Shown: in pieces, positions 3,248 to 61,260 of the stretch | Layout of the letters: each line of letters begins with the position of its first letter | Position numbering within the stretch: position 1 is the first letter of the stretch | Assembly: GCA_043812195.1 (NCBI GenBank) | Contig: JBDRML010000029.1 | Location: forward strand, 14,212-78,211 | Source: Candidatus Woesearchaeota archaeon | Lineage (GTDB): Archaea > Nanobdellota > Nanobdellia > SCGC-AAA011-G17 > PNOQ01 | Direction of reading: 5' to 3' | DNA: 64,000 nucleotides | Notes under the pieces: model-generated | Told to the model about the DNA's origin: nothing | The model's input: the letters and a program-made list of their open reading frames with translations, nothing else | The model's database searches: none | Program-made: the position numbers and the translations under genes

Positions 3248-4444
3248 ATGATAATTAAAAAAATCAAAGCCAATAAAATAAAAAATTCTAGGGGCGAAGA
3301 TGCAATAAAAGTAGAAATCAAATCAGATAAGACAAAGGCAGAGGCATCAGCGCCAAGTGGAGCAAGCACAGGAAAGCACGAAATTAAAGCTTTTACGTCT
3401 ACTCCAAAAGAAGCAGCAGACCAAATAAACAAAAATAAAAAATTAATAGGACTAGAAATAAATTCTTACCAAGATCTTAAAAAAATAGAAGATGAATTAT
3501 CTTATTTAGGTGGAAACTCTGTAATAGCAACAGAATATGCAGCTTTAAAATGTATAGGGCCTATCTGGGAACAAATTAATCCAAATACAAGAAAATTACC
3601 AAAACCATTAGGAAATGTAATTGGTGGTGGAAGACATTTCAAAGGAAACTGCACAGAATTTCAAGAATTCTTACTATTGCCCTTCACAAGCAAAAAACTA
3701 GATGATTCAATATTAGCAAATAACAAAATACATGAATTAGTAAAAAAGAATTTGAAAAAAGTAGACCATAACTTCGATGACCAAATGAATGACGAAGGAG
3801 GATGGGTAACATCATTAACTAATGAAGATACTCTTAAATTCCTAAAAGAAACAATAAAAGATGCAGACTTAAAAGTAAAAGTTAAATTAGGAGTAGATGT
3901 TGCAGCTTCATCTTTCTGGAACGGCAAGTATTATATCTACAAAGATAAAAAATTAACACAAGAAGAACAAATAGAATTCATCTCAGAATTAATTGAAAAA
4001 TATGATTTGCAATATGTAGAAGATCCTTTACATGAAGAAGACTTTGAAGGTTTTTCAAAATTAACTGAACGATTTAGAAATAAATGTATGATTGTAGGAG
4101 ATGACTTAACCACAACAAATGTAGAAAGACTAAAAAAAGCTATAAAATTAAAATCAATAAATGCAGTTATAATAAAACCAAATCAAATAGGTTCTTTAAT
4201 AAAAACAAGAGAAGTCATAAACTTAGCAAAAGAAAACAAAATAACATGTATAATGTCTCATAGATCAGGGGAAACTCTAGACGCTTCAATATCACAATTA
4301 GCAACTGGATTTGAAATTCCAATAATCAAATGTGGCATTTATGGTAAAGAAAGAGTAGCAAAATTAAAAGAACTCAAAAAAATAGAGCAAGAAATGAAAT
4401 TAAAGAATATAAAAAAAATAAATCAGCGAAATATTTATATATAA
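3248..4444 (+). CDS. eno: Enolase-family protein (short, 398 aa)
   Basis: NSRGEDAIKVE...APSGASTGKHE at the N-terminus and SHRSGETLDASISQLA near the C-terminus. Confidence 0.8.
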   Translation: MIIKKIKANKIKNSRGEDAIKVEIKSDKTKAEASAPSGASTGKHEIKAFTSTPKEAADQINKNKKLIGLEINSYQDLKKIEDELSYLGGNSVIATEYAALKCIGPIWEQINPNTRKLPKPLGNVIGGGRHFKGNCTEFQEFLLLPFTSKKLDDSILANNKIHELVKKNLKKVDHNFDDQMNDEGGWVTSLTNEDTLKFLKETIKDADLKVKVKLGVDVAASSFWNGKYYIYKDKKLTQEEQIEFISELIEKYDLQYVEDPLHEEDFEGFSKLTERFRNKCMIVGDDLTTTNVERLKKAIKLKSINAVIIKPNQIGSLIKTREVINLAKENKITCIMSHRSGETLDASISQLATGFEIPIIKCGIYGKERVAKLKELKKIEQEMKLKNIKKINQRNIYI

Positions 4445-4474
4445 TATTAATTTATCCAAAAGATACAATGTAAA

Positions 4475-4813
4475 ATGACACAATATAGTTTACAGGGTAA
4501 TGTAATTGTAGAAGACACAAAAAATTTACCAAAAATAGGTAATCTTTTATTTGATGATTTAGGAAAAGAAGTTATTGCTAAATTTAATAAGAGATTTGAA
4601 GGTGTTGATGGAATAGAATACACACAAAAATACGAGACAAATGAACCAGTTTCTTATTCAAATATACCAAGAGATCAATCTGGTCTCAGGTGGCTTTACC
4701 GGGATAGGGATATCGGCCTGAGTGCCAGGGGAGACTATTTGCTGAATGCCAACGATACTTGTCGGGTGCAAATTTATCCGGACCAAAAGGGTCTTGCGCA
4801 AAAATTGGAGTGA
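4475..4813 (+). CDS. Small hypothetical protein (112 aa), first gene of the radical SAM operon
   Basis: ATG start. The stop lies 2 nt before the next gene's ATG. The 3' third is conspicuously GC-rich relative to its surroundings. No family was recognised. Confidence 0.5.
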   Translation: MTQYSLQGNVIVEDTKNLPKIGNLLFDDLGKEVIAKFNKRFEGVDGIEYTQKYETNEPVSYSNIPRDQSGLRWLYRDRDIGLSARGDYLLNANDTCRVQIYPDQKGLAQKLE

Positions 4814-4815
4814 AT

Positions 4816-5919
4816 ATGTTAAAAAAAATAGAGCGTGCAAAAATAGAATTGATGACTTATGGAATGAATGTTTCTGAAACTGCAAGAAGATCCATAAGTG
4901 GTGACGAAGGAAGACCATTAACATTGGCAGATTATGCATCAACATCTGGTATCTCTATGGTTTTGGGAGATAATATTTGGGTGAATGCACCAATTAGAGA
5001 TTATAACCCAAACTTTGTAAATGAAACATATTATACTCTTGATTTCAGAGATGAAGGATTTTTTGTTGATTCTGATGGTATACAGTTCAAAACAATACCT
5101 GTTCCTGTGCCTGCTTATCATAAGGAAAAAGCACCTAGTGGTGATCCCTATATTTATCTTGCAATTACCCATACTGATAGAGTAAGAATTTCTCCTATTG
5201 GTGGATGTGCAATAGCTTGTCATTTTTGTGATATGTCTTATACATCTAAATATAGAAAAAAAGATATTGAAGATTTAGTTGACTCTGTAAGAGTTGCTTT
5301 GGAAGACCCAATTCAAGAAGCACACCATGTTCTTATTTCTGGAGGAACTCCAAAACCAAAAGATTATGAATACGAGCGAGAAGTTTATAGGGCTGTCGCT
5401 TCAGTATTTCCAGAAATTGATGTAGATGTCATGATGGTTCCTATGCCAGGATTACTAGATGCACAAGAGTTAAAAGAGATAGGTATACATGGGTTATCAA
5501 TAAATCTTGAGTTATACAATCAAGATATGGCCAAAAAAATCATGAAAGGTAAATGGAAGGCTTCAAGACAAATGTATTTAGATTTTATTGAAGATTCTAT
5601 TCCTATTTTTGGAGTGGGAAATGTTCGTTCTTTATTAATGGTTGGTATAGAACCACTAGAAGATACTTTAAGAGGAGTAGAAGCTTTAGCAGAAAGAGGT
5701 TGTGATCCTGTATTGAGTCCTTTTAGGCCAGACCAGTCTACTCCAATGATGAGTGAAAAACCACCTAGTGTTAATTTTTTAATAGAAACATACGAGAGAG
5801 CTAGAGAAATTGTTGAGAAATTTGAAGGAGTAAAACTTGGACCAAGATGTATTCCTTGCCATCACAATACACTTACCTTTCCAGATGACTCTGGTCTTTA
5901 CTACAACTCAGGAGAATAA
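4816..5919 (+). CDS. Radical SAM enzyme
   Basis: CAIACHFC is a CxxxCxxC cluster motif and ISGGTP is GGE-like. I place the start at ATG 4816, preceded by GGAG, rather than the track's 4759, which overlaps the upstream gene. Confidence 0.8.
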   Translation: MLKKIERAKIELMTYGMNVSETARRSISGDEGRPLTLADYASTSGISMVLGDNIWVNAPIRDYNPNFVNETYYTLDFRDEGFFVDSDGIQFKTIPVPVPAYHKEKAPSGDPYIYLAITHTDRVRISPIGGCAIACHFCDMSYTSKYRKKDIEDLVDSVRVALEDPIQEAHHVLISGGTPKPKDYEYEREVYRAVASVFPEIDVDVMMVPMPGLLDAQELKEIGIHGLSINLELYNQDMAKKIMKGKWKASRQMYLDFIEDSIPIFGVGNVRSLLMVGIEPLEDTLRGVEALAERGCDPVLSPFRPDQSTPMMSEKPPSVNFLIETYERAREIVEKFEGVKLGPRCIPCHHNTLTFPDDSGLYYNSGE

Positions 5920-5920
5920 T

Positions 5921-6814
5921 ATGAATAATTTAATAGGAATTGAACAATTAAATAAGGAAGAGATTATCGAATTATTGGAATTAACTAAGGATATTGAAGA
6001 CAATCCAAAAAAATATTTGAAAAAACTGGAAGACAAAAGTTTAGCAACACTTTTTTTTCAAGATTCAACAAGAACAAGATTAAGTTCATCTTTGGCTATG
6101 CAAAAATTAGGGGGGAAGGTTATAGAATTAGATAAAGCAAAATTTAATGAAGAAATGGGTGAGGAAGAAAGTTTTGAAGATATTATAAAAGTTGTTGGAG
6201 ATTATGTAGACATAATATGTTTGAGACACAGCGATGAAAAATCACCAAATCATGCAGGAAGCTTAACAAAAGCAAAGATTATTAATTGTGGAAATGGAAG
6301 AGATCAACATCCCACCCAAGCACTCTTAGATTTATATACAATTTGGAAAGAATTCAAAAGATTGCATAATCTAAATATTGTGATAGTTGGAGATTTAAAA
6401 CATTCGCGATCTGCACACTCCTTATTTATTGCCTTGTCATTTTTTGAAAAGAATAAAATTAAACTAATTTCTCCAAATATTTTCAAAATGCCAAAAAGAT
6501 ATTTTAGTTTAATTAGAAATGAAATAGATATAAACAAAACTGAAAAATTTGAATTAGAAAATGAAGATATTATTTACATGGCCGGATTTCCTATAGTAGA
6601 GAAATATGATAATTATTTTTTATACGATCTTTCGATAGACAAAGTTAAAAATTTAAAAGAAACTTCAATAATCATGTGTCCTTTGCCACGAATAGGTGAA
6701 ATTAAAAAAGAAGTAGATGCATTACCGCAGGCAAGATATTTTCAACAAAGTAAAAATGGAATTTTTGTCAGAATGGCTATCTTTATAAAATTATTAGAGG
6801 GATTAAATGAATGA
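5921..6814 (+). CDS. Aspartate/ornithine carbamoyltransferase-family protein (PyrB-like, with a divergent acceptor-site motif)
   Basis: STRTR, RH, HPTQ, GDLKHSRSAHS and CPLPR motifs are present. The ATCase MTRVQKER segment is replaced by MAGFPIVEK. Start at ATG 5921, 1 nt after the upstream stop. Confidence 0.8.
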   Translation: MNNLIGIEQLNKEEIIELLELTKDIEDNPKKYLKKLEDKSLATLFFQDSTRTRLSSSLAMQKLGGKVIELDKAKFNEEMGEEESFEDIIKVVGDYVDIICLRHSDEKSPNHAGSLTKAKIINCGNGRDQHPTQALLDLYTIWKEFKRLHNLNIVIVGDLKHSRSAHSLFIALSFFEKNKIKLISPNIFKMPKRYFSLIRNEIDINKTEKFELENEDIIYMAGFPIVEKYDNYFLYDLSIDKVKNLKETSIIMCPLPRIGEIKKEVDALPQARYFQQSKNGIFVRMAIFIKLLEGLNE

Positions 6815-7979
6815 TAAAGAACTAATCACTGATGGAAAAAAAGTATTATCTAAAGTTATGAGGATACTTAGAAAAGACTCATTGAAAAACCTTGAACCCA
6901 AGTCAGGATACTTTATGATTCCCTCAGATGTTGGAGGACCTGAACAACCTTTATTTTGGATTCCAACACAGGGATGTTCCTATGCTAAATCAGATTCTGG
7001 TGGATGTACTATGTGTAATTTTGGGGGATCTCTTGAACGTTTTACAGATGAATTTTTGTTAGAGCAATTTATTGATATGCTTGAAAATCCTATTATAAAA
7101 AGTTCTACTGTCTTAAATTATGGGGGACAGGGATCTTTTTTTGATGAAAAAGAGCATTCTAGATGGTTAAGAGAAAAAATATTAGAAGAAGTCGCTAAAA
7201 GGGATTGGGTAAATGTTTTTGTCTGTGAATCCAGACCTGAATATGCGACAAGAGATAAAATAAGGCATATGAGGGAAGTTTTAGAAGATAAAATAATCGA
7301 AGTTGGAGTAGGAGTCGAAAGTACAAACCAATTGGTAAGAGAAGGAATAATCAACAAAAATTTTAATGAGAATACCTACAATAGTCTTTTAGATTATGCA
7401 AGAGGATATGATATAGAGGTTTCACTAAATGTGATGTTTAAACCAAATCTTTTAACTGAATCAGAAGCAATAAGTGATAGCGTAAATACTATAAGACAAC
7501 TTCTTGAAGGAGTTTCTGAAGATGATCCGATTAAAAGAATTGTTTTAATGATGATCAACATTAAGCCAGGCACTTTAGTTGAATGGGCTTATAGAAAAGG
7601 ATATTACGAATCCCCATTGCTTTGGTCTGGCATAGAAGTATTAAGTAGGTTGACACAAAGAGAAAGAGAATTTGTTAAGGTTCTCGGTTTTGATACAGGT
7701 GTTAGTCCTTTAGGTTATATAAGTAATAATGATAAGACAACAGAAGAAGTCAGAGAAGCATTAAAAGATTTTAGTAGGAATCATGAAATTAAACCATTGC
7801 TAAAATTAAGGGAAATATATGGGGACTCTCCATCTTATCTTTTGTGGGAGAACAAAATGAGTCGACCTCAATTTAATGGAGAATTCCCTGGCCAAGAGAT
7901 GGAACCTTTGAAAAGAAGACTAGTCAATTTTTATCGTCTTCTAGAAAAAGAATTTAACTTAAAACCTTATATATTCTAA
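6807..7979 (+). CDS. Radical SAM-like Fe-S protein with Cx10CxxC spacing (COG1244/TIGR01210-like, the class containing RaSEA; assigned from memory)
   Basis: The motif is QGCSYAKSDSGGCTMCNFG. The start overlaps the upstream stop by 8 nt. Confidence 0.6.
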   Translation: MNDKELITDGKKVLSKVMRILRKDSLKNLEPKSGYFMIPSDVGGPEQPLFWIPTQGCSYAKSDSGGCTMCNFGGSLERFTDEFLLEQFIDMLENPIIKSSTVLNYGGQGSFFDEKEHSRWLREKILEEVAKRDWVNVFVCESRPEYATRDKIRHMREVLEDKIIEVGVGVESTNQLVREGIINKNFNENTYNSLLDYARGYDIEVSLNVMFKPNLLTESEAISDSVNTIRQLLEGVSEDDPIKRIVLMMINIKPGTLVEWAYRKGYYESPLLWSGIEVLSRLTQREREFVKVLGFDTGVSPLGYISNNDKTTEEVREALKDFSRNHEIKPLLKLREIYGDSPSYLLWENKMSRPQFNGEFPGQEMEPLKRRLVNFYRLLEKEFNLKPYIF

Positions 7980-8002
7980 TTTTATTGTAATATTTAGTTT
8001 AC

Positions 8003-8641
8003 TTAAGAAGAGGATAATATTTCAAACTTTTTCTTCCTTTTTTTAGGTTTGGGGTCTTCGTTCGGAAATCCTATACATACTGTAGTAAAATAATCTCTAT
8101 CCGGCTGATTATAAATTTTTTTTATTGTTTCTGAGATACAGGTTGGATCAATACACCAAAACCCTCCCAAACCAAATGAGTGAGAAGCTAGGAGCATGTT
8201 TTCAACGCAGGCTGATAAGCTAGCAATTTCAACGCTATAAGATACTATATGTCTTCTATGTTCCTGATTAGCATGAAGTTCACTTATTAAATCAATCCCA
8301 CCTGAAAATGGATGATCTGAAAAAACTTGTATTGCTAAAGGTGCTTCTCTCATACCACTAGAAGAAATTAACCTTGAATTATTTGTTCCATTAAAAAGGC
8401 CTTTTGTTGGGTGAAGTGGATTCCAATCAGAAGGATCTTCATGTTCTTCCATCGCACTGGCAACAAGATTTTTTCTATTGGTAGTATCTGCAATAATATA
8501 CCAGGGTTGAATATGTTTTGAAGAGGGTGCATGAATCCCTGCATAAAGTATTTTTTCAATATACTCTATTGGAATCGGCTCATTAGTAAATCTTCTAATA
8601 CTTCTGCGAGTAACCAAACATTCATATGCATCCATTTTCAT
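8003..8641 (-). CDS. Nitroreductase-family flavoprotein
   Basis: The N-terminal RRSIRRFTNEPIP is the nitroreductase signature. The protein is 212 aa. Confidence 0.75.
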   Translation of the reverse strand: MKMDAYECLVTRRSIRRFTNEPIPIEYIEKILYAGIHAPSSKHIQPWYIIADTTNRKNLVASAMEEHEDPSDWNPLHPTKGLFNGTNNSRLISSSGMREAPLAIQVFSDHPFSGGIDLISELHANQEHRRHIVSYSVEIASLSACVENMLLASHSFGLGGFWCIDPTCISETIKKIYNQPDRDYFTTVCIGFPNEDPKPKKRKKKFEILSSS

Positions 8642-8688
8642 AGGTAAAACTAGTTAATTTAAGTATTTTTCTATCACAAAATACTATT

Positions 8689-10056
8689 TCATATAGTATA
8701 AAGATTAAAACATTCCGATATAATTGTTTCACTCTCAGACAAAATACACTTTAAAACTTCTTTATAAGAATCACCACTTTTTATTAAGTAACCAACACAA
8801 CCCCCAAAAAATATGCTATCTGTTGGATAGTATAGTACTTTAAAAATAGAACCTTTATTAGTAAATGGTAGAGTAACATTACCCTCATCAAAATCGCTAT
8901 TAATAGTAGTAAAATCATAATAAGGCTTTAGCTTAACATGCCCCCATATATAATCAACCTGAAAATCTTCATAAGATGGCAGAGATAATTCTTCACCGAG
9001 AGCAATTTTTAATTCTAACTCAATCAGATTAATTTTATTAGACATTAGGACATTACATAAATATCCGCCCTGCCTTCTAGGATTAAGATCTACAGTATAA
9101 AGATTATTTTTACTATCTACAATAAAATCAAGTCCGAAAACTCCTCTAAAACTAGAAAAAGACATATAATTTCCAATTTTTTTTGAAACTTCAATTATTT
9201 TATCTTTTATTTCATCACTTAGAATAGAAGGATAAATATTTCCAAGATATTTATGCTGTCTCAATATTTGATCAGTTATACAAATAATTTGAGTTTTATT
9301 TTCACCAAGAACTATACAACTAACATTTGGCGAATGTTTAACATCTTTTATTAATTTAGACACAACAAATTTATTATATTTATTATTTAATCTAAGATTA
9401 GAATTAAATTTTTCAAGATCCTGTTTACTAAAAATTGGTCCATTCTCAAATCCTCCAGAACTATAAGTAGCAGAGATAAAAAAAGGATATCTCTCTTTTT
9501 CTTCTATATCTGTTATATTCTCATAAATCTTCGATTCATTTCTAGGAAGATTTAATTCTTTAAAGACATTGATTTGTTCAACCTTACTATCAAATCTAAA
9601 CACAATTTCTGGTTTTGGGCCCAAAAAGATTATTTTGGGATTATCAAAACTAAAGAAAACATTAGTCCAACTAAGGATAAAAATTCTATCTTGCTTCTCT
9701 GCTAATCGATCAATTATATTCTTTACAGTCTTAGAATTAGAAAACAATCTATTTAAATCGTCTGGCTCCTCCTGAATACACAGATTGTTCCCCCTATTTT
9801 TTAAATCACTAAACTTTTCTTCAATGAGAGTATTAATTATAATATAATTTTCTTTATCTTTCATAAGACTTTCTTTTTGTTTCGTAGACAATACCCATAT
9901 TGGCTTAAATTTCTTATTAAACCTTTTTTCTAGCTCATTAATCCAAAGTCCTACCATAGCCTCAAACCTATCTGTCAAAAATGAGAAAAAATATTCATAA
10001 TCATCGGAAAATATGCCTTCTTTTAGCTTTTTTTCTATTATTCCTTCCATATTCAT
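8689..10056 (-). CDS. ATP-grasp family ligase
   Basis: FRGVFGLDFIVDSKNNLYTVDLNPRRQGG is a typical ATP-grasp C-terminal core. It is co-oriented with, and 47 nt upstream of, the nitroreductase gene. Confidence 0.65.
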   Translation of the reverse strand: MNMEGIIEKKLKEGIFSDDYEYFFSFLTDRFEAMVGLWINELEKRFNKKFKPIWVLSTKQKESLMKDKENYIIINTLIEEKFSDLKNRGNNLCIQEEPDDLNRLFSNSKTVKNIIDRLAEKQDRIFILSWTNVFFSFDNPKIIFLGPKPEIVFRFDSKVEQINVFKELNLPRNESKIYENITDIEEKERYPFFISATYSSGGFENGPIFSKQDLEKFNSNLRLNNKYNKFVVSKLIKDVKHSPNVSCIVLGENKTQIICITDQILRQHKYLGNIYPSILSDEIKDKIIEVSKKIGNYMSFSSFRGVFGLDFIVDSKNNLYTVDLNPRRQGGYLCNVLMSNKINLIELELKIALGEELSLPSYEDFQVDYIWGHVKLKPYYDFTTINSDFDEGNVTLPFTNKGSIFKVLYYPTDSIFFGGCVGYLIKSGDSYKEVLKCILSESETIISECFNLYTI

Positions 10057-10262
10057 AATCTTAAATTTATATTAATTTATAAATTTATATGAACCCTAAA
10101 ATCTAATTAACAATTCCATCAACCTTGCCAACCACCATATTTAGTTACTGACAAAAGTAAGTTATATTAATATATCTTAGAAATAGCTTAAGGTGTTAAA
10201 TAATGGAAAAATCTTTAATAGTTTTTATATTTTATTTATGTCGTAAACTAATTAATAGAAAC

Positions 10263-10272
10263 TTTTATAAAA
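10263..10272 (+). promoter_or_regulatory. TATA box for rps2 (leaderless-type spacing)
   Basis: TTTTATAAAA lies 23 nt upstream of ATG 10295. The same aaaCTTTATAAA pattern recurs before many first genes in the window. Confidence 0.55.
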
Positions 10273-10294
10273 GCCTCATATCCTCAATCTCACT

Positions 10295-10894
10295 ATGACA
10301 GAACAAAAATTACTAATGCAATTGGATGATTATCTTAAAGCTGGAATTCACATTGGAACTAGATTTAGAACTAAATTCATGTCAAAATTTATATATAAAA
10401 TAAAACCAGATGGATTATCAGTTTTAAACGTAGAACAAATTAATATCAGATTAATACTAGCAGCCAATTTACTAAGCCAATACGAACCAAAAGACATATT
10501 AGTTGTATCAAGAAGAGAAAATGGTTGGAAGCCTGTAAAATTGTTCTCAAAGGTAACAGGAATTAAAAATTTCACAGGTAGATATCCACCAGGAATTTTA
10601 ACTAATGTCCAACTAGAAGACTTTGTGGAAACAAAATTAATTCTAGTAATAGATCCGATTCCAGATAAAAATGTAATTAAAGACGCAGAAAAGCTAAGTA
10701 TTCCAGTAATGGCTTTATGTGACACAAATAACGAGCAAACAAGCATAGACTTAGTTATTCCTTGCAATAATAAAGGCAAAAAAAGTCTAGCATTAATTCT
10801 ATATGTTTTAGCAAGAGAATATGCAAAATCAAAAGGGATTATAAAATCAGATAAAGACTTCAAATATACAGTTGATGATTTTACATCAGAATAA
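10295..10894 (+). CDS. rps2: Ribosomal protein uS2
   Basis: YLKAGIHIGTRFRT...VVSRRENG...FTGRYPPGILTN. Confidence 0.9.
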   Translation: MTEQKLLMQLDDYLKAGIHIGTRFRTKFMSKFIYKIKPDGLSVLNVEQINIRLILAANLLSQYEPKDILVVSRRENGWKPVKLFSKVTGIKNFTGRYPPGILTNVQLEDFVETKLILVIDPIPDKNVIKDAEKLSIPVMALCDTNNEQTSIDLVIPCNNKGKKSLALILYVLAREYAKSKGIIKSDKDFKYTVDDFTSE

Positions 10895-12545: not shown

Positions 12546-15500
12546 TTGTTTACAAAAAAGTGGACTAAATTACTAATCCTTGTTGTAGCAACTTTATTCA
12601 CAACTTTTATAGGCTCCGGTACTGATACGGGTGCTTTTGATATTAATTTTATACTTGGTAAAGATATCACAATCAATAATATAAATGCAGGTTCTGATAA
12701 TGTGATAATAAGCTCAAAAGAAATTAAAAACATAGATGATTCTAATGCCTTAGATAAATTTACACATTTAAAAGGGTTTAAGGATATAAGTTTTGATGTT
12801 TCTTCTTCTAAGGGTTTTAATGTTGATGAAATTAAGGAAGTTTATGTTTCTTCTGAAGATAAAGTTGAAAGTACCTTTAAATTGAATAATTTAGAAATAA
12901 TTACGAAATACAAAGAAATAGATACTAGTTTTTTTAATAGAGCACAAAAACCAATAAAACAAACCTATATTATAAAAAATTTATTAAATGAACCCAGAAA
13001 CATAAAATTAAATATAAAATATGAGATCGATTCTGATGTTGTAACTTGGAATAATATAGAATATGAAATTACTAAAGAATCTAAATATTTTAAAGCCTTT
13101 TATGCTGAAGGGTCCTTTCCTGAAATAGATGAACCTTCCTTAACTGGTCATATTTTATATTTTGATCATAATTATTACGATTTTAAAGATATTGTCAATT
13201 TAGATTATAAAATCTCTGTTTACTCCAGTAATAAAAAAAATTATATTTATTTAGAAATTAATTTTAATATTGATAGATTAGAAGAATTTGTATTAGATCC
13301 AGAAATAGGATGGACAACTAGAGTAATAGATAACTCTGCTTATGGCACAGAATATGTTTATGCTATAGATATAAATAATGATGTAGATGTTGATGTAGTG
13401 GCTAATATATGGGATGATGACAAGATAGTTTGGTATGAAAATGATGGTTCTAATCCCCCGACTTGGACTAAAAGAGATGTAGGTGCAATTGATTCTCCAT
13501 CTTCTGTTTATGCAGAAGATTTGGATGAAGATACTAACGTTGATGTTTTAAGCACTGCCCATTTTGATAATGTTTTGTATTGGTATGAAAATGATGGTTC
13601 TAATCCCCCTAGCTGGACAAGGTATACAATTGGTAGTGGATTAGATCACCCACGCTCTGTTTACGCAACATACATAGATGGAGATGAATATATAGATATT
13701 GTAGTAGGAGATGGTTATGATTCCCCTAGTACTGGGAATGTATATTGGTATGAGAACAATGAAGATTCGCCTCCGACTTGGACTCGCTATACTATTGATA
13801 GCTCTCTAGACGTAATTACTTCTGTTTATGCAATAGATATAAATGGTGATAATGATATTGATGTTGTAGCAGGATCCTGGATGGATGATACAGTAAGATG
13901 GTATGAGAACCCGACTTGGACCCCTAGGGACATAACTACCTTAGCAAATGGGGTACGTTCAATTTATGCAATAGATATAAATGGGGATGAGGATATAGAT
14001 GTTCTCTCTGCAGATCAATATAATGATGATATAGCTTGGTATAAGAATGACGGTTCTGATCCACCAAGCTGGACAAGATATATAATTAACTCTTCTATTG
14101 ATTCTCCTCTTTGGGTTTTTGCAAAAGATTTAGATAAAGATGGAGATGCAGATGTAATTGCTTCCAGCCAAACAGAAGATGTGGTAGTGTGGTATGAAAA
14201 TGATGGTTCAAGCACTCCGACTTGGACTGCACATACAATAACGAGTTCTGCTGATGGTGTACGTGGAGTTTATGCAATAGACTTGGATGAAGATAGTGAT
14301 GTTGATGTTGTGAGTGCTTCTTATTTTGATGATACAGTGAGATGGTATAAAAGCGATTTTATTAATTGTGGAGATGGTCTTTGTAACAGTGGTGGTGGAG
14401 AAAATCCAGAAAATTGTCCAGATGATTGTGATTATAAGTATACTTATTTATGGATTCCTTTTGGGAATTGGAGTTCACAAGAAGAATTTGAAAATGCTGT
14501 TGAAGCAAGAGCAGATTTCTTTATGGATATCTCTCCATTAGGAGATTGTAAGAAGTTTATTAATAATATTCCAGTTCCTGTTTCGTGGGTCAACAATTGG
14601 TGTCCATATGTTAAGGAAGAGTCTAAAGCTTCTTTACTGACCGATACTTATTTATGTGCAGAAACATATAGGCTTCTTTCCAATCCTATTTTTTATGAGA
14701 AAGCAATAGGTCTTTCTAAAGATCATTTTTGTTTTGATGGTGGAGGACACTGTAGAGGGATATCTAGAAGGGGGTCAAGATATGCTTATGCTGAAACACC
14801 ATACTGGCTAAATCGTTTAGAAGTTCCTGCCCATGAATTAGGTCATGCTTATTCTTTATGTGATGAATATAATTATGCAAACTGGAGTAGCCAAAATAGT
14901 AGCTGGTTAAGTGGGATATGCCCTAATCTTTGGGAGGACACATATGATGAAGATAATCCAATTAACCACCCATGTTCTACTTCTGATGACGGAAAATGTA
15001 TAGATAGTGGTTGGTGTTGTGGCTCTCGTTCTTATAGTAATTATTCTGGAATTTATACTGCTAGTGGAAATAATTGTAGTGATGGAGGAGATTTGTATAA
15101 CGTTATGGGTTATGGTGCTACAAAAAGAAGGTGTGGGTATAGTTATGGTTCTTATAATAAGTTAGGGGAATTCTTAGATTGTTCTGGAGCAAGGGATGAA
15201 GAAGAAACAAATATAGTTCATTTAACATTTGAATTTAATATATCCAATCCAACACAGGAAAATGTGTCTTTAGATGAAATTTATACTTATTATGATTATC
15301 TTCCTGCTGTATCTACTGAAGAATCTCTTTACGAATTAAAAATTTTAGATGGAAGCGAAATAATGGTGCACTCCGAGAACTTACAAGTATTTTATTTTGA
15401 ATTTGTTGATTATGATTATGAATTTTTCAATTCAACAGGAGGTTCAATCAATGAAAAAAATGATACTTTCACAACAGTGGAGTTAGAATATAATTCATCT

Positions 15501-15992
15501 TACGAAATATTGCAAGTATTTAAGAATGATACTCTTATTTATGAAGAGAATATTTCTACCTTGCTCTGTAATGAAAATGATGTTTGTGATGGAAAGGAAA
15601 ATTATTTTAGCTGTTCTCAAGATTGTTCTTCTGGTAGTCAAGATGGAATATGCGATAGACAAGATGATGGAATATGCGATCCAGACTGTTCCGAAGGTGC
15701 AGATTTAGACTGTCAAATATATGGTTTTGAGTTAAAATATCAAAATTTAACTGAAACAATTTTTTCATTTAATTTATTAAATAACCTTACTAATCAGTTA
15801 AATATATCTTGGAATTTAACAATAGGAGATGGCAATAAAATATCTTCTAATCTTATTGGATTAGAATCGGATGAAACAATATTTAATTATGTAAATTATA
15901 ATTATTCAAGTGCTGGAAATTATTTGGTTAATTTATTTACATATAATTCAACTACTATAATTGATAATAAAACTATTAATATTACAATATAG
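12546..15992 (+). CDS. Large secreted protein: signal peptide, 7 FG-GAP/VCBS-like propeller blades, HExxH zincin domain and Cys-rich modules
   Basis: TTG start lies 8 nt after GGAGGTG, followed by a hydrophobic N-terminus. There are seven D-x-D-x-D...WYENDGS..P.WT repeats. HELGHAYSLCDEY is at about 14830. CGDGLCN..ENCPDDCD and CDGKENYFSCSQDCS modules are present. Confidence 0.7.
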   Translation: MFTKKWTKLLILVVATLFTTFIGSGTDTGAFDINFILGKDITINNINAGSDNVIISSKEIKNIDDSNALDKFTHLKGFKDISFDVSSSKGFNVDEIKEVYVSSEDKVESTFKLNNLEIITKYKEIDTSFFNRAQKPIKQTYIIKNLLNEPRNIKLNIKYEIDSDVVTWNNIEYEITKESKYFKAFYAEGSFPEIDEPSLTGHILYFDHNYYDFKDIVNLDYKISVYSSNKKNYIYLEINFNIDRLEEFVLDPEIGWTTRVIDNSAYGTEYVYAIDINNDVDVDVVANIWDDDKIVWYENDGSNPPTWTKRDVGAIDSPSSVYAEDLDEDTNVDVLSTAHFDNVLYWYENDGSNPPSWTRYTIGSGLDHPRSVYATYIDGDEYIDIVVGDGYDSPSTGNVYWYENNEDSPPTWTRYTIDSSLDVITSVYAIDINGDNDIDVVAGSWMDDTVRWYENPTWTPRDITTLANGVRSIYAIDINGDEDIDVLSADQYNDDIAWYKNDGSDPPSWTRYIINSSIDSPLWVFAKDLDKDGDADVIASSQTEDVVVWYENDGSSTPTWTAHTITSSADGVRGVYAIDLDEDSDVDVVSASYFDDTVRWYKSDFINCGDGLCNSGGGENPENCPDDCDYKYTYLWIPFGNWSSQEEFENAVEARADFFMDISPLGDCKKFINNIPVPVSWVNNWCPYVKEESKASLLTDTYLCAETYRLLSNPIFYEKAIGLSKDHFCFDGGGHCRGISRRGSRYAYAETPYWLNRLEVPAHELGHAYSLCDEYNYANWSSQNSSWLSGICPNLWEDTYDEDNPINHPCSTSDDGKCIDSGWCCGSRSYSNYSGIYTASGNNCSDGGDLYNVMGYGATKRRCGYSYGSYNKLGEFLDCSGARDEEETNIVHLTFEFNISNPTQENVSLDEIYTYYDYLPAVSTEESLYELKILDGSEIMVHSENLQVFYFEFVDYDYEFFNSTGGSINEKNDTFTTVELEYNSSYEILQVFKNDTLIYEENISTLLCNENDVCDGKENYFSCSQDCSSGSQDGICDRQDDGICDPDCSEGADLDCQIYGFELKYQNLTETIFSFNLLNNLTNQLNISWNLTIGDGNKISSNLIGLESDETIFNYVNYNYSSAGNYLVNLFTYNSTTIIDNKTINITI
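13300..14355 (+). repeat. Seven tandem in-frame repeats of about 150 nt (propeller blades)
   Basis: tggtatgaaaatgatggttc recurs at about 13431, 13584 and 14192, with diverged copies between. The repeats are coding, not a CRISPR array. Confidence 0.85.
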
Positions 15993-20872: not shown

Positions 20873-21526
20873 ATGACATTTATCGCAATAGCAGGAAACA
20901 TAGCCGCAGGAAAAACTACATTAGGCAGAATAATAGGAAAAAAATTAGAATTCAAATTACATGAAGAGCCAATTAACCCCGAAACATTAAGCGCATTCTA
21001 TAAAGATATAGAAAATAATGTCAAACCATCAGAAAGAGCATTCCTATTTCAAAAAAGTTTTCTAGGATTAAGAACTGCAGTAATGGCAGACGCTCAAATG
21101 ACTGGAAGAAACTGCATACAAGACAGAACTGTTTTTGAGGATAGATATGTATTTGCCGAATCATTGCATAATCAAGGATTTATTTCTGATGAAAAATTTA
21201 ATATATATTGTAGCCTTTATACGCTACAGATGACTGATTTAAAACACCCAGATTTATTAGTTTATTTAGATGCTCCCATAGAAAAACTAAGAGAAAGAAT
21301 AAATAAAAGAGGAAGAATAAGTGAAATATCATTAATAGATCCAAACAATAAATATTTAGAACATCTAGATGAATTATATAAAAAAATGATGAGTAAATAT
21401 GAAGGAACATCAATTCATATAGACACAAAAGAACTCGATTTAGAATCTAATTTTAGTGATCAAGAATATGTATCAAACCTTATAAGTGGTTTTTTGAAAT
21501 ACAGATTACAAAACGTTAAAAAATAA
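20873..21526 (+). CDS. Deoxynucleoside kinase family protein
   Basis: P-loop IAGNIAAGKTTL, a DR..FED segment and the lid KRGRISE. Confidence 0.75.
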   Translation: MTFIAIAGNIAAGKTTLGRIIGKKLEFKLHEEPINPETLSAFYKDIENNVKPSERAFLFQKSFLGLRTAVMADAQMTGRNCIQDRTVFEDRYVFAESLHNQGFISDEKFNIYCSLYTLQMTDLKHPDLLVYLDAPIEKLRERINKRGRISEISLIDPNNKYLEHLDELYKKMMSKYEGTSIHIDTKELDLESNFSDQEYVSNLISGFLKYRLQNVKK

Positions 21527-28122: not shown

Positions 28123-28782
28123 ATGAGAATCACCAAGAAGTTAGCAGAGTTATGTGGTATCATAGTTGGAGATGGTTGTATAACTTATTATAAAAAGAAT
28201 GGTGATTATAAGGTAGAAATTTTTGGAGATTATAAAGAATTAGAATATCATAGTTACATAAAAACTCTTTTCAAAGAAATATTCAATAAAGAGCCAAAAA
28301 CAAAATTGAATAAAGATGGAATTTCTCTTTGCTTACATTCAAAAGAAGTCTTAGACAAATTGATAGGATTAGGTATTCCAATAGGAAAGAAAAAAGATGT
28401 AATTAGAATTCCTCCCAAAATAATGTCAAACAAAGGATTAACAAAATGTTTTATTAGAGGATTAGCCGATACAGATTTCAGTGTTTGTTTTAAAAAAGGA
28501 GGAAGAATCAAAAACTCTTATCCTAGAATTACTGTAGAAATGCATTCTAAAAAACTGATAAAAGATATAAAACTAAGTTTGGAATCTTTAGGAATTACAT
28601 GCTACTACTATGAAAGAACCAGAAATACACCTTTTGGTATATTTCAATCATATAGTTTAGATATAAATGGAAACAAAAAATTTGAAAAATGGATGAGATT
28701 AATAGGATTTAAAAATAAAAAACATCTATCAAAAATAGAATTCTGGAAGAAAAACGGATATTATCAAAAGAATTGTTCTTAA
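28123..28782 (+). CDS. Free-standing LAGLIDADG homing endonuclease (two-motif)
   Basis: LAELCGIIVGDGCI and FIRGLADTDFSV. It is clearly paralogous to the intron ORF at 32033 (GIPIGKKKDVIRIP vs GLPLGKKENINIP; YPRITVEM vs YPRIQISS). Confidence 0.8.
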   Translation: MRITKKLAELCGIIVGDGCITYYKKNGDYKVEIFGDYKELEYHSYIKTLFKEIFNKEPKTKLNKDGISLCLHSKEVLDKLIGLGIPIGKKKDVIRIPPKIMSNKGLTKCFIRGLADTDFSVCFKKGGRIKNSYPRITVEMHSKKLIKDIKLSLESLGITCYYYERTRNTPFGIFQSYSLDINGNKKFEKWMRLIGFKNKKHLSKIEFWKKNGYYQKNCS

Positions 28783-30875: not shown

Positions 30876-31709
30876 ATGAAGAAGATTCAAGAAATTTTAG
30901 GTATAGCAGTAACAAGGATAGCAAGAGAAATCGAAGCTAATATTATTGTTTCTATAGATTCTATTCCAGATATAGAATACGAAGATACTGATGATTTTCA
31001 GGTAAAGATAATAATATTCAAAAAAATAAAAGAGGAGGTCTACAGAAAAACTGAATATGTCATAAAAATAAAAAACTTAGAATATGGATCAATTACACCA
31101 GTAAAAGAAATAATAATGGATGCAATTACAAAAGGTCACATTAATAAAGGCGATACAGTAATATGCACCCAAGACAGCAAATTAGGATTTGGCTATAAAG
31201 GAGTTATTTTTATATTTGAAATAGACGATACTTTCTTCCAAATAAGCAGACATAAATTATCTGAAAAAATAGGATCAGAAGTTATAGAAGCAACATTAAA
31301 TATATCAAAAGAAATAGCACAAGAAGGCAGAGAAGGAAAAAGAGTTGGAACAGCTTTTATAATAGGAAATATATCAGAACTATCAAAATATATGAAACAA
31401 TTAATTATTAACCCATTTCAAAACCTAGAAGAAAGACCTAAAGTTACAGACCCAAAAATGAGAGAATCAATAAAAGAGTTTGCGCAGTTAGACGGAGTGT
31501 TTATACTAGATGAAGAAGGCCATATAATAAGTGCAGGAACATATATAAATATAGATCATTCAGATATAAATTTGCCAGAGGGTTTTGGGACAAAACATAG
31601 ATCAGCTATAGCTTTAACAAGTAAAACAGATTCATTAGCTATTGTTATTTCAGAATCAGGTGGAAAAATAAGAGTCATAAAAGCAGGAAAAATTATACTT
31701 AAAATCTAA
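30876..31709 (+). CDS. dacZ: Diadenylate cyclase, archaeal DacZ-type (N-terminal regulatory domain + DAC domain)
   Basis: DAC motifs LDGVFIL (DGA-like) and GTKHRSA (RHR-like), with GTAFIIG upstream. Confidence 0.7.
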   Translation: MKKIQEILGIAVTRIAREIEANIIVSIDSIPDIEYEDTDDFQVKIIIFKKIKEEVYRKTEYVIKIKNLEYGSITPVKEIIMDAITKGHINKGDTVICTQDSKLGFGYKGVIFIFEIDDTFFQISRHKLSEKIGSEVIEATLNISKEIAQEGREGKRVGTAFIIGNISELSKYMKQLIINPFQNLEERPKVTDPKMRESIKEFAQLDGVFILDEEGHIISAGTYINIDHSDINLPEGFGTKHRSAIALTSKTDSLAIVISESGGKIRVIKAGKIILKI

Positions 31710-31986: not shown

Positions 31987-32712
31987 GGACTGGTAGCTCA
32001 GCTTGGTAGAGCACTTGAGGAGATAAGCAAAAATGAAAGTACAAATTCCAAATGAACCAACAATCAATTTAGCAGAAGAGTTCGGAATACATATTGGTGA
32101 TGGGAGTATGAACTTTTATAAAGAAAAGGGATTGGTATCTATAGCAATAAATCCAAACGAAAAAAAATATATGGATTTCATTAAAAGACTTTATTGGAGT
32201 CTATATAAAGTAAGTGTTAACTTAAGAAATTGGAGTAGGGCATATGGATTTCAACTAAGCTCTAACGAATTGGTTGAATTCAAATATAAACAAGGTCTCC
32301 CATTAGGAAAAAAGGAAAATATAAATATTCCTCATTGGATAAAGAAAAACGAACAATATCAAAAAGCATGTCTAAGAGGAATATTTGACACAGATGGTAC
32401 ACTGTATATTGAAAAAAAGTACAATAAACCCTATCCAAGAATACAAATTTCGAGTATATCTCAAAATTTAATTAAAGATATACATGAAATATTAGTCAAT
32501 TTGGATTTTAAAGTTAGTCTATGGAAAGAAAATTTTAGAAATAAGAACTGGAAAACAAGACATGTAATTGCCTTAAGAGGATATAAACAAGTTCAAAAAT
32601 GGATGGATGAAATAGGCACTAATAATCCCAAAAATTTAGAAAAATATAATAAGCTTATCTTCAGGTGAAGCTTTTAACCAAGGGGTCGCGGGTTCAAATC
32701 CCGTCCGGTCCA
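31987..32712 (+). tRNA. tRNA-Lys(UUU) interrupted by a 652-nt intron (32018..32669) in the anticodon stem (30/31)
   Basis: Exons GGACTGGTAGCTCAGCTTGGTAGAGCACTTG and GCTTTTAACCAAGGGGTCGCGGGTTCAAATCCCGTCCGGTCCA form a perfect cloverleaf. BHB: central CACU 32012-15/GGUG 32664-67, bulges UG|A and AA|G, and a 10-bp intron helix 32019-28/32653-62. Confidence 0.85.
32033..32668 (+). CDS. tRNA-intron-encoded LAGLIDADG homing endonuclease (211 aa)
   Basis: LAEEFGIHIGDGSM and CLRGIFDTDGTLY. The ORF fills the intron: ATG is 15 nt after the 5' splice site and TGA ends 1 nt before the 3' splice site. Confidence 0.8.
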   Translation: MKVQIPNEPTINLAEEFGIHIGDGSMNFYKEKGLVSIAINPNEKKYMDFIKRLYWSLYKVSVNLRNWSRAYGFQLSSNELVEFKYKQGLPLGKKENINIPHWIKKNEQYQKACLRGIFDTDGTLYIEKKYNKPYPRIQISSISQNLIKDIHEILVNLDFKVSLWKENFRNKNWKTRHVIALRGYKQVQKWMDEIGTNNPKNLEKYNKLIFR

Positions 32713-47113: not shown

Positions 47114-50100
47114 ATGGCAGAAAAATCAGTAGAACAAATAAAAAAAGTAATGAATAACCCAAGCCATATAAGAAACATCGCTATCGCAGCCCATATCGAT
47201 TTTTTTTGAGATAAATTCTCAAAAGACGAGTGCATGGGAAATGCATAGCACCAGATTCAAGGCTCATTCTAAGAGATGGAACTATGTTAACTGCTAAAAA
47301 ATTATTTAACTTAGCAGAGAAAAAAGGAACAAAATTTGAAGAAACGAAAGACCATATAATTTATGATACTAACTCATTAAATTTAGAAGCATTTTCCCTA
47401 AACAAAACTAATGGAAAATTAGAAAAAAAACCAATACAACTAGCCTGGAAATTAAAAGGTGGGGACTTAATAAATATTAAATTAAGAAACAATTTCAACA
47501 TTTCCACAACACCAGAACACAAATATTTAGTCTTAGAAAATTTAGAGTTTACAGAAAAAGAAGCTAAAGATATAAAATTAGGAGATAGAATAATCTGCCC
47601 AAGAAAGCTTGAAACTAATTCAAATATTAACATAAAACGCACAATTCTACTAAAATTAGCTGAAAAAAGATTTTACGTTAAAGTAAACAAAATCTTAGGA
47701 GAAAAAATAAAAAAATTCGTTCTGAAAGAAAAAGAAACAATAAAAAAAATAAACAAAGAAATAAAGTATAAATCATTTTATCATGGTTCATGGCAAAATA
47801 GATATTTATTAAAAGACTTAATAGAAATTTCAAGTTTAATAAATATAAACTTGGAGTATTTGTATAACAATATAGAAACAATAATTTATAGAAGCGGAGC
47901 TCAAAGAGGAAAAAGCTCGCTGCCAACAAAATTACCACAAAACTTTCAAAACTTTTATTATCTAGCAGGATTGTTTGTAGGAGATGGACATCATAAAAAA
48001 TTCATAGTCGGAAAAAATGAGTTAAAATCTAAATTTGTAGAAATTTGCAATGAATTAGGAATAAATGTAACATATAGAAATTATGAATACAGAACAGAAG
48101 AAATAGTAACAAACGCTACCTTATTAGAAATATTAAACTCATTATTTGATTATCCAAAAGTCAAAAAAAGCCATAATGTAAAAATATCAGAATTTCTTCT
48201 ACTATCTCCAAAAAAATATTCTTCAAAATTCTTAAGAGGATACTTCGATACTGATGGATGTGTAGAAAAAAGCAGAAGAGCAGTAACAATATCGTCTGCC
48301 AGTGATAAAATGATAGCAGATTTAAGTATGTTTTTATTAAGATTCGGTTGCATACCAATCATAGAAAAAGACAACACAATAACAATTAGTGGACAATCCA
48401 TGATAAATTTTATAGCAGAAATAGGATTTGAAATTAAAGCAAAAATAGCCAAAGCAAACTCCATAAAACAAACAATAATCGGAAGCATGGTTTCAGATGT
48501 TATACCAGTAACACATAGTAACGGAATGATTTCACTACAAAAAAACTTCACCAATTCAGAAAAATTAATTAATTTTTGTGAAAAAAATGATATCAGCATA
48601 GAAAATATAAGTAAAATATTAAGTAAAGATATCTCATACATAGAAGTAAAAGCTATAGAAACAAAAAATGAAGAATTTGTATATGACTTCACAGTAAAAG
48701 ACAACCATAACTTTGCTGCAGAAGGTATGATTATTCATAATACCACATTTTCAGACAATCTTTTAGCAGGTGCAGGCATGATTTCTAAAGAACTAGCAGG
48801 TAAACAATTAGCCTTAGATTTTCACGAAGATGAGGCAACAAGAGGTATTACAATAGATTCAGCTAGCGTATCTATGCTTCACACAGTAAAGGGAGAAGAT
48901 TACTTAATCAATTTAATAGACACACCAGGTCACGTAGATTTTGGTGGAGATGTTACTAGGGCTATGAGAGCAGTTGACGGTGCAATTGTATTAGTAGATG
49001 CAGTTGAAGGAATAATGCCTCAAACAGAAACAGTTCTAAAACAAGCTCTAAGAGAAATGGTAAAACCAGTTCTTTTCATAAATAAAGTTGACCGTTTAAT
49101 CAAAGAAGTTAAACTAACACCACAAGCAATGCAAGAAAGATTCATTAAAATTATATCAGACGCTAATGGGTTCATTGAAACTTTTGCACCAGACGAATTC
49201 AAAAAGAAATGGCAATCAAACGTACAAGACGGAAGCGTAGCTTTTGGTTCAGCATTTCATAATTGGGCATTAAGTTTCCCATACATGCAAGAAAAAGGAA
49301 TAAGCTTCAAAGATATTATAGATGCTTATGAAAAAGAAGATTGGAAAATTTTAGCAAAGAAAGCACCATTACATGAGGTTGTTTTGGGTATGATAATTAA
49401 ACACCACGTAAATCCAATCACAGCACAAGCATACAGAATTCCAAAAATATGGAAAGGAGATTTAGATACAGAAATAGGAAAATCTTTATTAAATTGTGAT
49501 CCAAAAGGACCTGTAGCATTTATAGTAACAAAAATAGTAATAGATAAACATGCAGGAGAAGTATCTGCAGGAAGATTATTCTCAGGAACATTAAAACAAG
49601 GTGATGAAGTTTGGCTTAACATGGGTAAAAAGAAAGTTAGGTTACAACAGGTATCAATTTACAAAGGCGCACAAAGAACTGCTTTTAATGAAATTCCAGC
49701 AGGAAACATAGCAGGTTTAGTAGGATTAAAAGATACATTCGCAGGTGAAACTATATCTTCAGAACCAATGGAACCTTTCGAAGCAATTAAACATATCTTT
49801 GAACCTGTAATCACAAAATCCATAGAAGCTAAAAAAGCATCAGACTTAGCAAAATTAATTGATGTTTTAAAACAAGTTGGAAAAGAAGATCCAAGTATCA
49901 AAATAGAAATCAATGAAGAAACTGGAGAAAATTTGATGCATGGTATGGGAGAATTACATTTAGAGATTATAGAAAACAGAATTAAATCTGAAAAAGGTTT
50001 AGATGTAACAACTTCAGAACCAATCGTTGTTTACAGAGAAACAGTTTCAAAAGTAAGTGCAGAAAAAGAAGGTAAAAGTCCAAATAAGCATAATAAATTC

Positions 50101-61208: not shown

Positions 61209-61238
61209 CTTGCCATACACCACAAAATCATTTATAAA
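61209..61238 (+). promoter_or_regulatory. Conserved 5' cassette plus TATA box of a LAGLIDADG gene (second copy)
   Basis: cttgccatacaccacaaaatcaTTTATAAA lies 22 nt before ATG 61261 and matches 28071..28102. Confidence 0.6.
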
Positions 61239-61260
61239 GTTAAAAATCAATGCATCAAAC

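Follow-up and report, generated by a model that had tools for sequence, protein, structure and literature searches.

A candidate mobile cassette for amino-acid-based small-molecule chemistry, with a radical S-adenosylmethionine enzyme, an ATP-grasp ligase and a paralogue of aspartate carbamoyltransferase, in a Woesearchaeota genome

What do six closely packed genes in the genome of a Candidatus Woesearchaeota archaeon do, and which of them belong together? The question is raised by positions 4475-10056 of a 64,000-nucleotide stretch of contig JBDRML010000029.1. This whole 64-kb stretch, the DNA that was analysed, is called the window here; its host is an AT-rich (~30% GC) archaeon of the DPANN type. 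On the plus strand, gene 1 encodes a small protein, gene 2 a radical S-adenosylmethionine (SAM) enzyme, gene 3 a protein of the aspartate carbamoyltransferase (ATCase) family, and gene 4 a second radical SAM enzyme, which resembles RaSEA. On the minus strand, a nitroreductase-fold gene (gene 5) and an ATP-grasp gene (gene 6) converge toward gene 4. We propose that genes 2 to 6, without gene 1, form a mobile cassette whose products carry out an uncharacterised small-molecule pathway based on the chemistry of amino acids, and give this reading a probability of about 0.55. No described pathway or paper that we found accounts for the cassette.

The plus-strand genes are separated by 2 nucleotides (nt) between genes 1 and 2 and by 1 nt between genes 2 and 3, while genes 3 and 4 overlap by 8 nt; a GGAG or GAGG lies 4-8 nt upstream of each start codon of genes 2, 3 and 4. 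Coordinates, spacings and GGAG sites had been reported in a first-pass annotation made from the letters alone, and a re-reading of the sequence found them correct.

For comparison, related loci were collected from species-representative genomes (38 loci) and from metagenomes (80 loci), each with up to 10 kb of flanking sequence. All open reading frames (ORFs) in these loci were clustered; about 100 of the loci are non-redundant. Co-location was counted in those 38 non-redundant loci that have 4 kb or more on either side (the well-flanked loci), where genes up to 9 kb from the gene 2-type radical SAM gene were considered. Its most frequent partner is the ATP-grasp gene (84%), followed by the ATCase-like gene (58%), an nSTAND1-pentapeptide gene (47%), a SIR2_2 gene (45%), the nitroreductase gene (34%) and the RaSEA-like gene (11%). 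The value for the ATCase-like gene is probably an undercount, because in four loci of the full set it is fused and was clustered under the ATP-grasp family. The conserved unit is the pair of genes 2 and 6, to which genes 3, 5 and 4 are added in this order of frequency. The first-pass annotation had assumed a core of genes 1 to 4, whose place is taken by gene 2 and the convergent ATP-grasp gene 6. The nitroreductase gene is nearly always present together with the ATCase-like gene.

The hosts of these loci belong to two domains. Among archaea, those named include Aenigmatarchaeota and Nanoarchaeota-type organisms. Named bacterial hosts include members of the candidate phyla radiation (CPR), i.e., Saccharibacteria, Jorgensenbacteria and Parcubacteria, as well as Acidobacteriota (Thermoanaerobaculia, Holophagales), Actinomycetota, Chloroflexota, Gemmatimonadota, Omnitrophota and several Proteobacteria. 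A full orthologous set in the order of the window is found in locus L043, with 66, 62, 58, 63 and 56% identity for genes 2 to 6, respectively, and all five genes also occur in a CPR bacterium of the Jorgensenbacteria (L010). Saccharibacteria have a compact four-gene set in the order ATCase-like, nitroreductase, radical SAM and ATP-grasp (L013, L021). Gene 3 homologues are moreover fused to other cassette genes. Fusions of ATCase-like and RaSEA-like parts (P0123, 675 amino acids (aa), and P0240, 679 aa) occur in Nanoarchaeota-type loci, and both fall into the clade of the nearest relatives of gene 4. Fusions of ATCase-like and ATP-grasp parts (744-747 aa, with a YVAGLP signature) occur in the Thermoanaerobaculia-type locus L016 (11038-13278) and in L073, L077 and L082. 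These fusions in other genomes show a coupling of the ATCase-like protein to either partner, and the gene 3 product is predicted to be physically coupled to the ATP-grasp or the RaSEA-like enzyme in the same manner. That the genes constitute one functional unit on no known pathway, as had been surmised at first, is borne out by the recurrent co-location in two domains and by the two independent fusions. Comparisons with PADLOC, Rfam, plasmids, viral contigs and the searchable literature gave no match, and no description of the cluster of genes 2 to 6 was found in that literature.

Further enzymes recur around the cassette. Loci that lack the ATCase-like gene carry a LysA-like pyridoxal phosphate-dependent decarboxylase or a methyltransferase, neither of which ever occurs together with the ATCase-like gene; the methyltransferase best matches glycine/sarcosine N-methyltransferase, a weak match of 79 bits against a cut-off of 350. 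Nearby we repeatedly find NadE-like and QueC-like PP-loop enzymes, a RutB/BiuH-like isochorismatase, a gamma-carbonic-anhydrase-like protein and flavin adenine dinucleotide-dependent monooxygenases; genes of Liv/Urt-type ATP-binding cassette (ABC) importers recur as well and adjoin the cassette in ~29% of the well-flanked loci. A variant without the ATCase paralogue (L045, 6901-13620) has the order radical SAM, RaSEA-like, RutB/BiuH-like isochorismatase, LysA-like decarboxylase, QueC-like PP-loop protein (413 aa) and ATP-grasp, with a ParE toxin gene upstream. Its isochorismatase matches RutB with 57 and BiuH with 48 bits, where the cut-offs are near 370. Taken together, the partner genes suggest a chemistry of amino acids or diamino acids with nitrogen-bound one-carbon units (carbamoyl, carbamate) and amide formation. 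A role in NAD biosynthesis, which the NadE-like, isochorismatase, SIR2 and TIR neighbours might bring to mind, was rejected: the NadE-like proteins score 88-144 against an equivalog cut-off of 255, and the isochorismatase matches RutB and BiuH, with no nicotinamidase model among its matches.

Horizontal mobility is the best reading of how the cassette of genes 2 to 6 is distributed. In the window, the six-gene block lies between the genes of enolase and ribosomal protein S2 (rpsB; 3248-10894 for the whole region), while in a related archaeon (L003, 1-1251) enolase directly adjoins S2, so that the block in the window looks inserted. The cassette is scattered sparsely over more than 10 phyla of both domains, with 50-77% identity between the domains, and transposase, recombinase and ParE genes lie near its copies. 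Phages and plasmids as carriers were considered and rejected: no viral contig has the cassette, and plasmids hold only the distant MSMEG_0568 family.

Gene 2 (4816-5919, plus strand, 367 aa) is the most conserved core component of the cassette. Its product matches the radical SAM domain PF04055 with 52.1 bits (cut-off 29.5) and the family NF045502 ("variant_rSAM") with 129.2 bits (cut-off 125; positions 7-357 of 357). Behind a beta-rich N-terminal domain of ~120 aa it carries the canonical CxxxCxxC motif that had been noticed in the first pass, in the form CAIACHFC (C131-x3-C135-x2-C138), and three further invariant cysteines, C296, C345 and C348, which could serve as ligands of an auxiliary cluster. 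Among the 1351 homologues detected, archaeal and bacterial sequences are 55-77% identical. An AlphaFold2 model (pLDDT 88) has its nearest Protein Data Bank (PDB) folds in MqnE, HydE, LipA, NifB and RlmN at a template-modelling (TM) score of ~0.5; an assignment of function by structure was given up, since neighbours at this level yield no specific lead. A sequence profile finds ThiH and HydG alone in the PDB, at E-values of 1e-3 or worse. The closest named family is MSMEG_0568 (TIGR04043; 70.3 bits against a cut-off of 303.7), whose plasmid-borne members, of the Nit1C nitrilase cluster, are ~26% identical to gene 2. Like gene 2, MSMEG_0568 belongs to a conserved cluster that further contains an ATP-using enzyme, a flavoprotein and a carbon-nitrogen enzyme. 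Its partner families (nitrilase, GNAT, AIR-synthase-like), however, differ from those of gene 2, and it is as uncharacterised as gene 2 itself.

Gene 3 (5921-6814, plus strand, 297 aa) encodes both domains of the ATCase/ornithine carbamoyltransferase (OTCase) family (PF02729 and PF00185). It scores 243.4 bits against TIGR00670, whose cut-off is 236.95, while its cluster-linked orthologues in L013 (214 bits) and L043 (234 bits) remain under the cut-off. The best PDB match is the ATCase of M. jannaschii (2rgw), from which gene 3 differs by a deletion of five residues at TRIQKER. We aligned gene 3 and its cluster-linked homologues with PyrB of M. jannaschii and of E. coli. The motifs of gene 3 are STRTR, LRHS, HPTQ, CPLPR, GDLKHSRSAHS and MAGFPIVEK. 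Its matches cover the positions of the carbamoyl-phosphate site, S52-T53-R54-T55, R105, H134, Q137 and the L267 region. Most cluster-linked members likewise keep S-x-R-T-R (mostly STRTR), R105, HP[TS]Q and PLPR, and R167 is kept in all family members aligned. The carbamoyl-phosphate motifs named in the first-pass annotation are thus all present and kept in most of the subfamily. PyrB and gene 3 have in common the two-domain fold, STRTR, R105, H134/Q137, PLPR and R167.

The differences lie on the acceptor side. K84 of the 80s loop is lost in all cluster-linked members (GEEES in gene 3 versus AKGES), and so is TR[VI]QKER, whose R229 and Q231 bind the beta-carboxylate of aspartate; its place is taken by Y-x-A-G-[LF]-P (MAGFP in gene 3). 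GRT[VI]HS is likewise changed to SRSAHS in all cluster-linked members aligned. The suspicion, first raised by MAGFPIVEK, of an altered acceptor site therefore generalises to a family signature. In addition, a Pfam scan of the window's ORFs of 150 aa or more found no pyrI or other pyr gene, and some of the paralogues, unlike PyrB, form a single protein with an ATP-grasp or radical SAM domain. Judged by its sequence, gene 3 is a neofunctionalised ATCase paralogue with an intact carbamoyl-phosphate site and a lost site for the side chain of aspartate. With K84, R229 and Q231 gone, its acceptor is predicted not to be aspartate; the retention of R167 together with the loss of these positive charges points, by inference, to an alpha-amino acid whose side chain is neutral or basic.

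Gene 4 (6807-7979, plus strand, 390 aa) matches the RaSEA model TIGR01210 with 174 bits (E = 4e-51), under its cut-off of 212.15. The resemblance to the RaSEA class that had been noted at first is thereby upheld at a sub-cut-off level. Its cluster motif GCSYAKSDSGGCTMC, initially counted as Cx10CxxC, reads C-x9-C-x2-C; when gene 4 is aligned with annotated RaSEAs, C57, C67 and C70 prove invariant, and this unusual motif and the fold family are common to both. The relatives of gene 4 form a small clade at 47-58% identity, one member of which the JGI names "archaeosine synthase beta-subunit"; identity to annotated RaSEAs is at most 32%, and in gene 4 and its clade the C-terminal CxxC...CxC of those enzymes is replaced by N-D-K-T...S-P-S. 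We thus take gene 4 to encode a predicted RaSEA-like radical SAM enzyme of the COG1244/TIGR01210 superfamily, as distinct from RaSEA proper.

RaSEA depends on its transferase partner ArcS, as only the complex of the two is active (PMC11298593). The 8-nt overlap of genes 3 and 4 and the fusions of their homologues elsewhere would fit such an ArcS-RaSEA design with a different transferase, the obligate group-transfer partner being a carbamoyltransferase instead of ArcS. Unlike the archaeosine system, homologous cassettes occur in bacteria and no tRNA-guanine transglycosylase lies nearby; neither ArcTGT nor ArcS was found in the window.

Gene 6 (8689-10056, minus strand, 455 aa) is an ATP-grasp enzyme (PF02655, 38.6 bits, cut-off 23.2). 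The profile of its family finds BesA (8yi6, 49.5 bits) and LdmS (7r8p, 47 bits), two dipeptide-forming ATP-grasp enzymes, as best PDB matches, followed by carboxyphosphate-forming enzymes. Gene 6 differs from BesA and LdmS by an extra N-terminal region of ~100 aa and by scores far under their equivalog cut-offs (44 against 475 for LdmS, NF047900; 32 against 750 for BesA, NF042917); a single-sequence AlphaFold2 model reached a pLDDT of 31. We consider it a putative ligase, the core partner of gene 2, that appears closest to the L-amino-acid ligases. Gene 5 (8003-8641, minus strand, 212 aa) is a nitroreductase-fold flavoprotein (PF00881, 81.2 bits, cut-off 23.5) and a frequent accessory of the cassette; against BluB (TIGR02476) it scores 60.6 bits and does not reach the cut-off of 150.

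From these assignments, the following pathway may be sketched. Gene 2 would start from a common amino acid or diamino acid and remodel it to a non-standard intermediate that bears an amine, and gene 3 would transfer the carbamoyl group of carbamoyl phosphate to an amino group to give a ureido compound. Gene 6 would activate a carboxylate as acyl phosphate and form an amide bond, either by ligation or by ring closure. Gene 4, in complex with gene 3 as RaSEA is with ArcS, might perform radical C-N chemistry on the adduct, and gene 5 a dehydrogenation or reduction that depends on flavin. As product we would expect a nitrogen-rich (ureido or amide) capped amino acid or pseudo-dipeptide. A similar logic is known from the pyrrolysine pathway of PylB, PylC and PylD, in which a radical SAM enzyme remodels one amino acid, an ATP-grasp ligase couples it to a second one and an oxidoreductase completes the product; the homology, however, is confined to the superfamily level, Pyl lacks carbamoyl transfer, and PylC is not among the PDB matches.

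A hint at the purpose of the product comes from bacterial loci, many of which have SIR2_2 and nSTAND1-pentapeptide genes between the cassette genes, in several gene orders (e.g., L001, 12311-16347; L008, L026, L027, L036, and others). The SIR2_2 protein has ~650 aa, of which the N-terminal ~480 aa are without a family match; the other is an nSTAND1 NTPase of ~740 aa with C-terminal pentapeptide repeats. On the radical SAM tree, both are found throughout most of the bacterial branches, and the CPR and archaeal branches have neither. In loci of the Holophagales/Thermoanaerobaculia type, a pentapeptide-TIR protein and a DDE transposase (PF07592) lie just upstream of the radical SAM gene (L012, 8687-9796; L015, L017, L019, L023, L065, L083), and the archaeal-type cassette of L043 contains a stand-alone pentapeptide-repeat protein. 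This interleaving with SIR2, STAND and TIR-type genes in bacteria adds to the first-pass annotation, which had not foreseen it. Because bacterial cassettes so often hold SIR2 and STAND-pentapeptide genes between their own genes, the product probably serves in conflict between organisms, be it as an antimetabolite, an antiviral or an immune-linked molecule. The antiviral SIR2-STAND proteins of the Avs5 and DSR type (PF13289, PF20703) comprise the same kinds of domain; unlike them, SIR2 and STAND of the bacterial cassettes are separate genes, often amid the biosynthetic ones. The Ophion defence system also employs a radical SAM enzyme, but its components differ from those of the cassette.

A bolder version of this idea, which we put forward tentatively and hold to be rather doubtful, takes the bacterial cassette with a SIR2 effector and a STAND-pentapeptide sensor as an undescribed multi-gene immune system, of which DPANN and CPR organisms keep just the biosynthetic module. 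The product would then be a new kind of small molecule, an antiviral antimetabolite or an immune signal, and the pair of ATCase paralogue and RaSEA-like enzyme would be a second case, after ArcS and RaSEA, of a group-transfer enzyme that works with a radical C-N lyase.

Several observations weigh against the proposed small-molecule pathway or its role in conflict. Each chemical step we infer from superfamily membership, and gene 2 is without a close characterised relative, given the sub-cut-off match to MSMEG_0568 and a TM score of ~0.5 to the nearest PDB folds. A source of carbamoyl phosphate was not found in the window. In L045 a RutB/BiuH-like hydrolase stands at the place of the ATCase-like gene, so that removal of a carbamoyl group fits as well as its addition. 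The radical SAM gene was found on no viral contig. None of the six window proteins has a match in PADLOC-DB 2.0, and a known defence system was rejected on this ground; the bacterial SIR2 and STAND partners match PADLOC marginally only (E = 4e-4 and 5e-3). SIR2 and STAND are furthermore absent from the window and from all archaeal and CPR versions, and therefore the conflict role may not apply here.

Gene 1 (4475-4813, plus strand, 112 aa) stands apart from the cassette. A word-indexed search with it matched nothing except gene 1 itself, while a full phmmer search of 1.8 billion representatives detected 50 homologues of 230-280 aa. Residues 1-68 align with the N-termini of these homologues and residues 50-112 with their C-termini, from which gene 1 is best read as an in-frame remnant, internally deleted by ~135 codons, of an archaeal hypothetical protein family of ~250 aa. 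This family has no Pfam match, and its full-length members occur in unrelated contexts, in L127 as two copies in tandem and in L128 next to BatA/VWA/MoxR genes. No homologue of gene 1 was found in 126 related loci. In the closest relatives a winged helix-turn-helix-like ORF of 83 aa takes its place upstream of the radical SAM gene. Gene 1 is not part of the cassette; it is a bystander that marks its left edge. The first-pass annotation had seen the 112-aa protein as an intact small member of the system or as a precursor of a ribosomally synthesized peptide with post-translational modifications (RiPP), a view that gives way to a deletion relic absent from every related locus. The 3' third of gene 1 is a patch of 53% GC in a genome of 30% GC; the C-terminal motif that is conserved in the gene 1 family is encoded by this patch (4680-4810). 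A structured RNA in the patch was considered and rejected: the best Rfam match is snoR41 (E = 1.1; 20 bits, where the gathering score is 40), the fold z-score is -0.95, and there is no similarity to related loci. The GGAG site that couples gene 1 to gene 2 is still present in the remnant.

Among the other explanations, a catabolic, energy-yielding cassette would turn the proposed direction around, with gene 3 acting phosphorolytically on a ureido compound and the carbamoyl phosphate feeding ATP formation by carbamate kinase. Catabolic ornithine and putrescine carbamoyltransferases do run in this direction. The exchange of the ATCase-like gene for a relative of the ureido/biuret amidohydrolases RutB and BiuH in L045, a hydrolytic equivalent of decarbamoylation, would suit such a role, as would the importers that adjoin ~29% of the well-flanked loci and the retention of the cassette by small-genome, fermentative CPR and DPANN organisms. 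We nevertheless regard it as unlikely: an ATP-consuming ligase in 84% of the loci is a poor match to degradation, no carbamate kinase was seen among the loci inspected, the RutB and BiuH matches are weak (57 and 48 bits, cut-offs near 370), and the linkage to SIR2 and STAND is left unaccounted for. The same linkage, extended by TIR, and the invariant radical SAM enzyme also count against a compatible solute, i.e., an amino acid or dipeptide amide capped in its charges by N-carbamoylation or N-methylation and by amidation or removal of the carboxyl group. Such solutes exist in N-acetylglutaminylglutamine amide, made by Ngg, which has an ATP-grasp domain, and AsnO, and in N-alpha-carbamoyl-glutamine-1-amide. 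The mutually exclusive tailoring enzymes (ATCase-like, LysA-like, methyltransferase) would all neutralise a terminus of an amino acid, NadE-like and QueC-like PP-loop enzymes, families with members that amidate carboxylates, recur nearby, and the ATP-grasp enzyme is of the amino-acid-ligase type. Given, however, that the methyltransferase is matched weakly (79 bits, cut-off 350) and that the sources are groundwater, soil and sediment metagenomes, none of them notably saline, a solute of this kind seems quite improbable to us.

An RNA or tRNA base modification close to archaeosine, with gene 4 as a RaSEA-type enzyme on a nucleic-acid-bound intermediate, is very improbable. The distant similarity of gene 4 to RaSEA (E = 4e-51 for TIGR01210) is the sole positive evidence for the modified-nucleoside role that had been offered at first; the JGI label on one member of the gene 4 clade and the QueC-like gene in L045 would go along with it. 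On the other side, gene 4 is sub-cut-off and lacks the C-terminal Cys4 motif, occurs in only ~11% of the loci, and has homologous cassettes around it in bacteria; bacteria are not known to have archaeosine. ArcTGT and ArcS are missing from the window, as noted above, and ATCase-family enzymes are known to act on small molecules only. Ordinary pyrimidine biosynthesis, with gene 3 as the pyrB of the host and its neighbours there by chance, would explain why gene 3 scores above the TIGR00670 cut-off, if barely so (243 against 237 bits), and why fused homologues are named "aspartate carbamoyltransferase" by the NCBI. The data contradict it, and we give it hardly any credence: K84, R229 and Q231 are missing throughout the subfamily, the Saccharimonadales locus L013 holds a canonical pyrB (321 bits for TIGR00670) a few kb from the paralogue (214 bits), pyrI and the other pyr genes were not found among the scanned ORFs (150 aa or more) of the 64 kb, and linkage and fusions, with neighbours co-conserved elsewhere, connect gene 3 with the ATP-grasp and RaSEA-like genes. 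Finally, a RiPP precursor peptide had been suggested by the gap of only 2 nt between gene 1 and the radical SAM gene that follows it and by what looks like a coupling site. This too is contradicted by the data and next to untenable, as gene 1 is what a deletion has left of a protein from an unrelated 250-aa family, and in ~100 related loci the radical SAM gene is not preceded by any conserved small ORF.

If the small-molecule pathway proposed here holds, gene 3 represents a new substrate specificity in the ATCase/OTCase family, and a cautionary case for annotation pipelines, which now name proteins of this type aspartate carbamoyltransferase because the scores of the paralogues straddle the TIGR00670 cut-off. 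The pathway would give a first functional context to the NF045502 family, with its more than 1300 members and without any relative that has been characterised, and a second setting, outside tRNA modification, to chemistry of the RaSEA type. A biosynthetic module tied to SIR2, STAND and TIR across many bacterial phyla would be a candidate small-molecule conflict system. Genomes of CPR and DPANN organisms are small and metabolically reduced; because some of them retain the cassette all the same, its product may matter for a symbiotic lifestyle.

The window also encodes exosome subunits, enolase, ribosomal protein S2, split RNA polymerase subunits, EF-1alpha, Sua5, a deoxynucleoside kinase and an intein-bearing EF-2. 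The EF-2 gene (47230-50811; product 1193 aa) carries an intein with a LAGLIDADG homing-endonuclease domain, and three stand-alone ORFs resembling LAGLIDADG endonucleases (28123-28782, 32033-32668 and 61210-61968) lie amid the core genes. The deoxynucleoside kinase (20873-21526) fits nucleotide salvage rather than de novo synthesis; a protein with a DAC (diadenylate cyclase) domain is encoded at 30876-31709. Positions 53331-54311 (minus strand) encode a protein with an SLT lytic-transglycosylase domain, a type of peptidoglycan-cleaving enzyme, here in an archaeal genome. Positions 12546-15992 encode an 1148-aa protein with multiple FG-GAP-like repeats and Cys-rich C-terminal regions, which is probably exposed at the surface or secreted.

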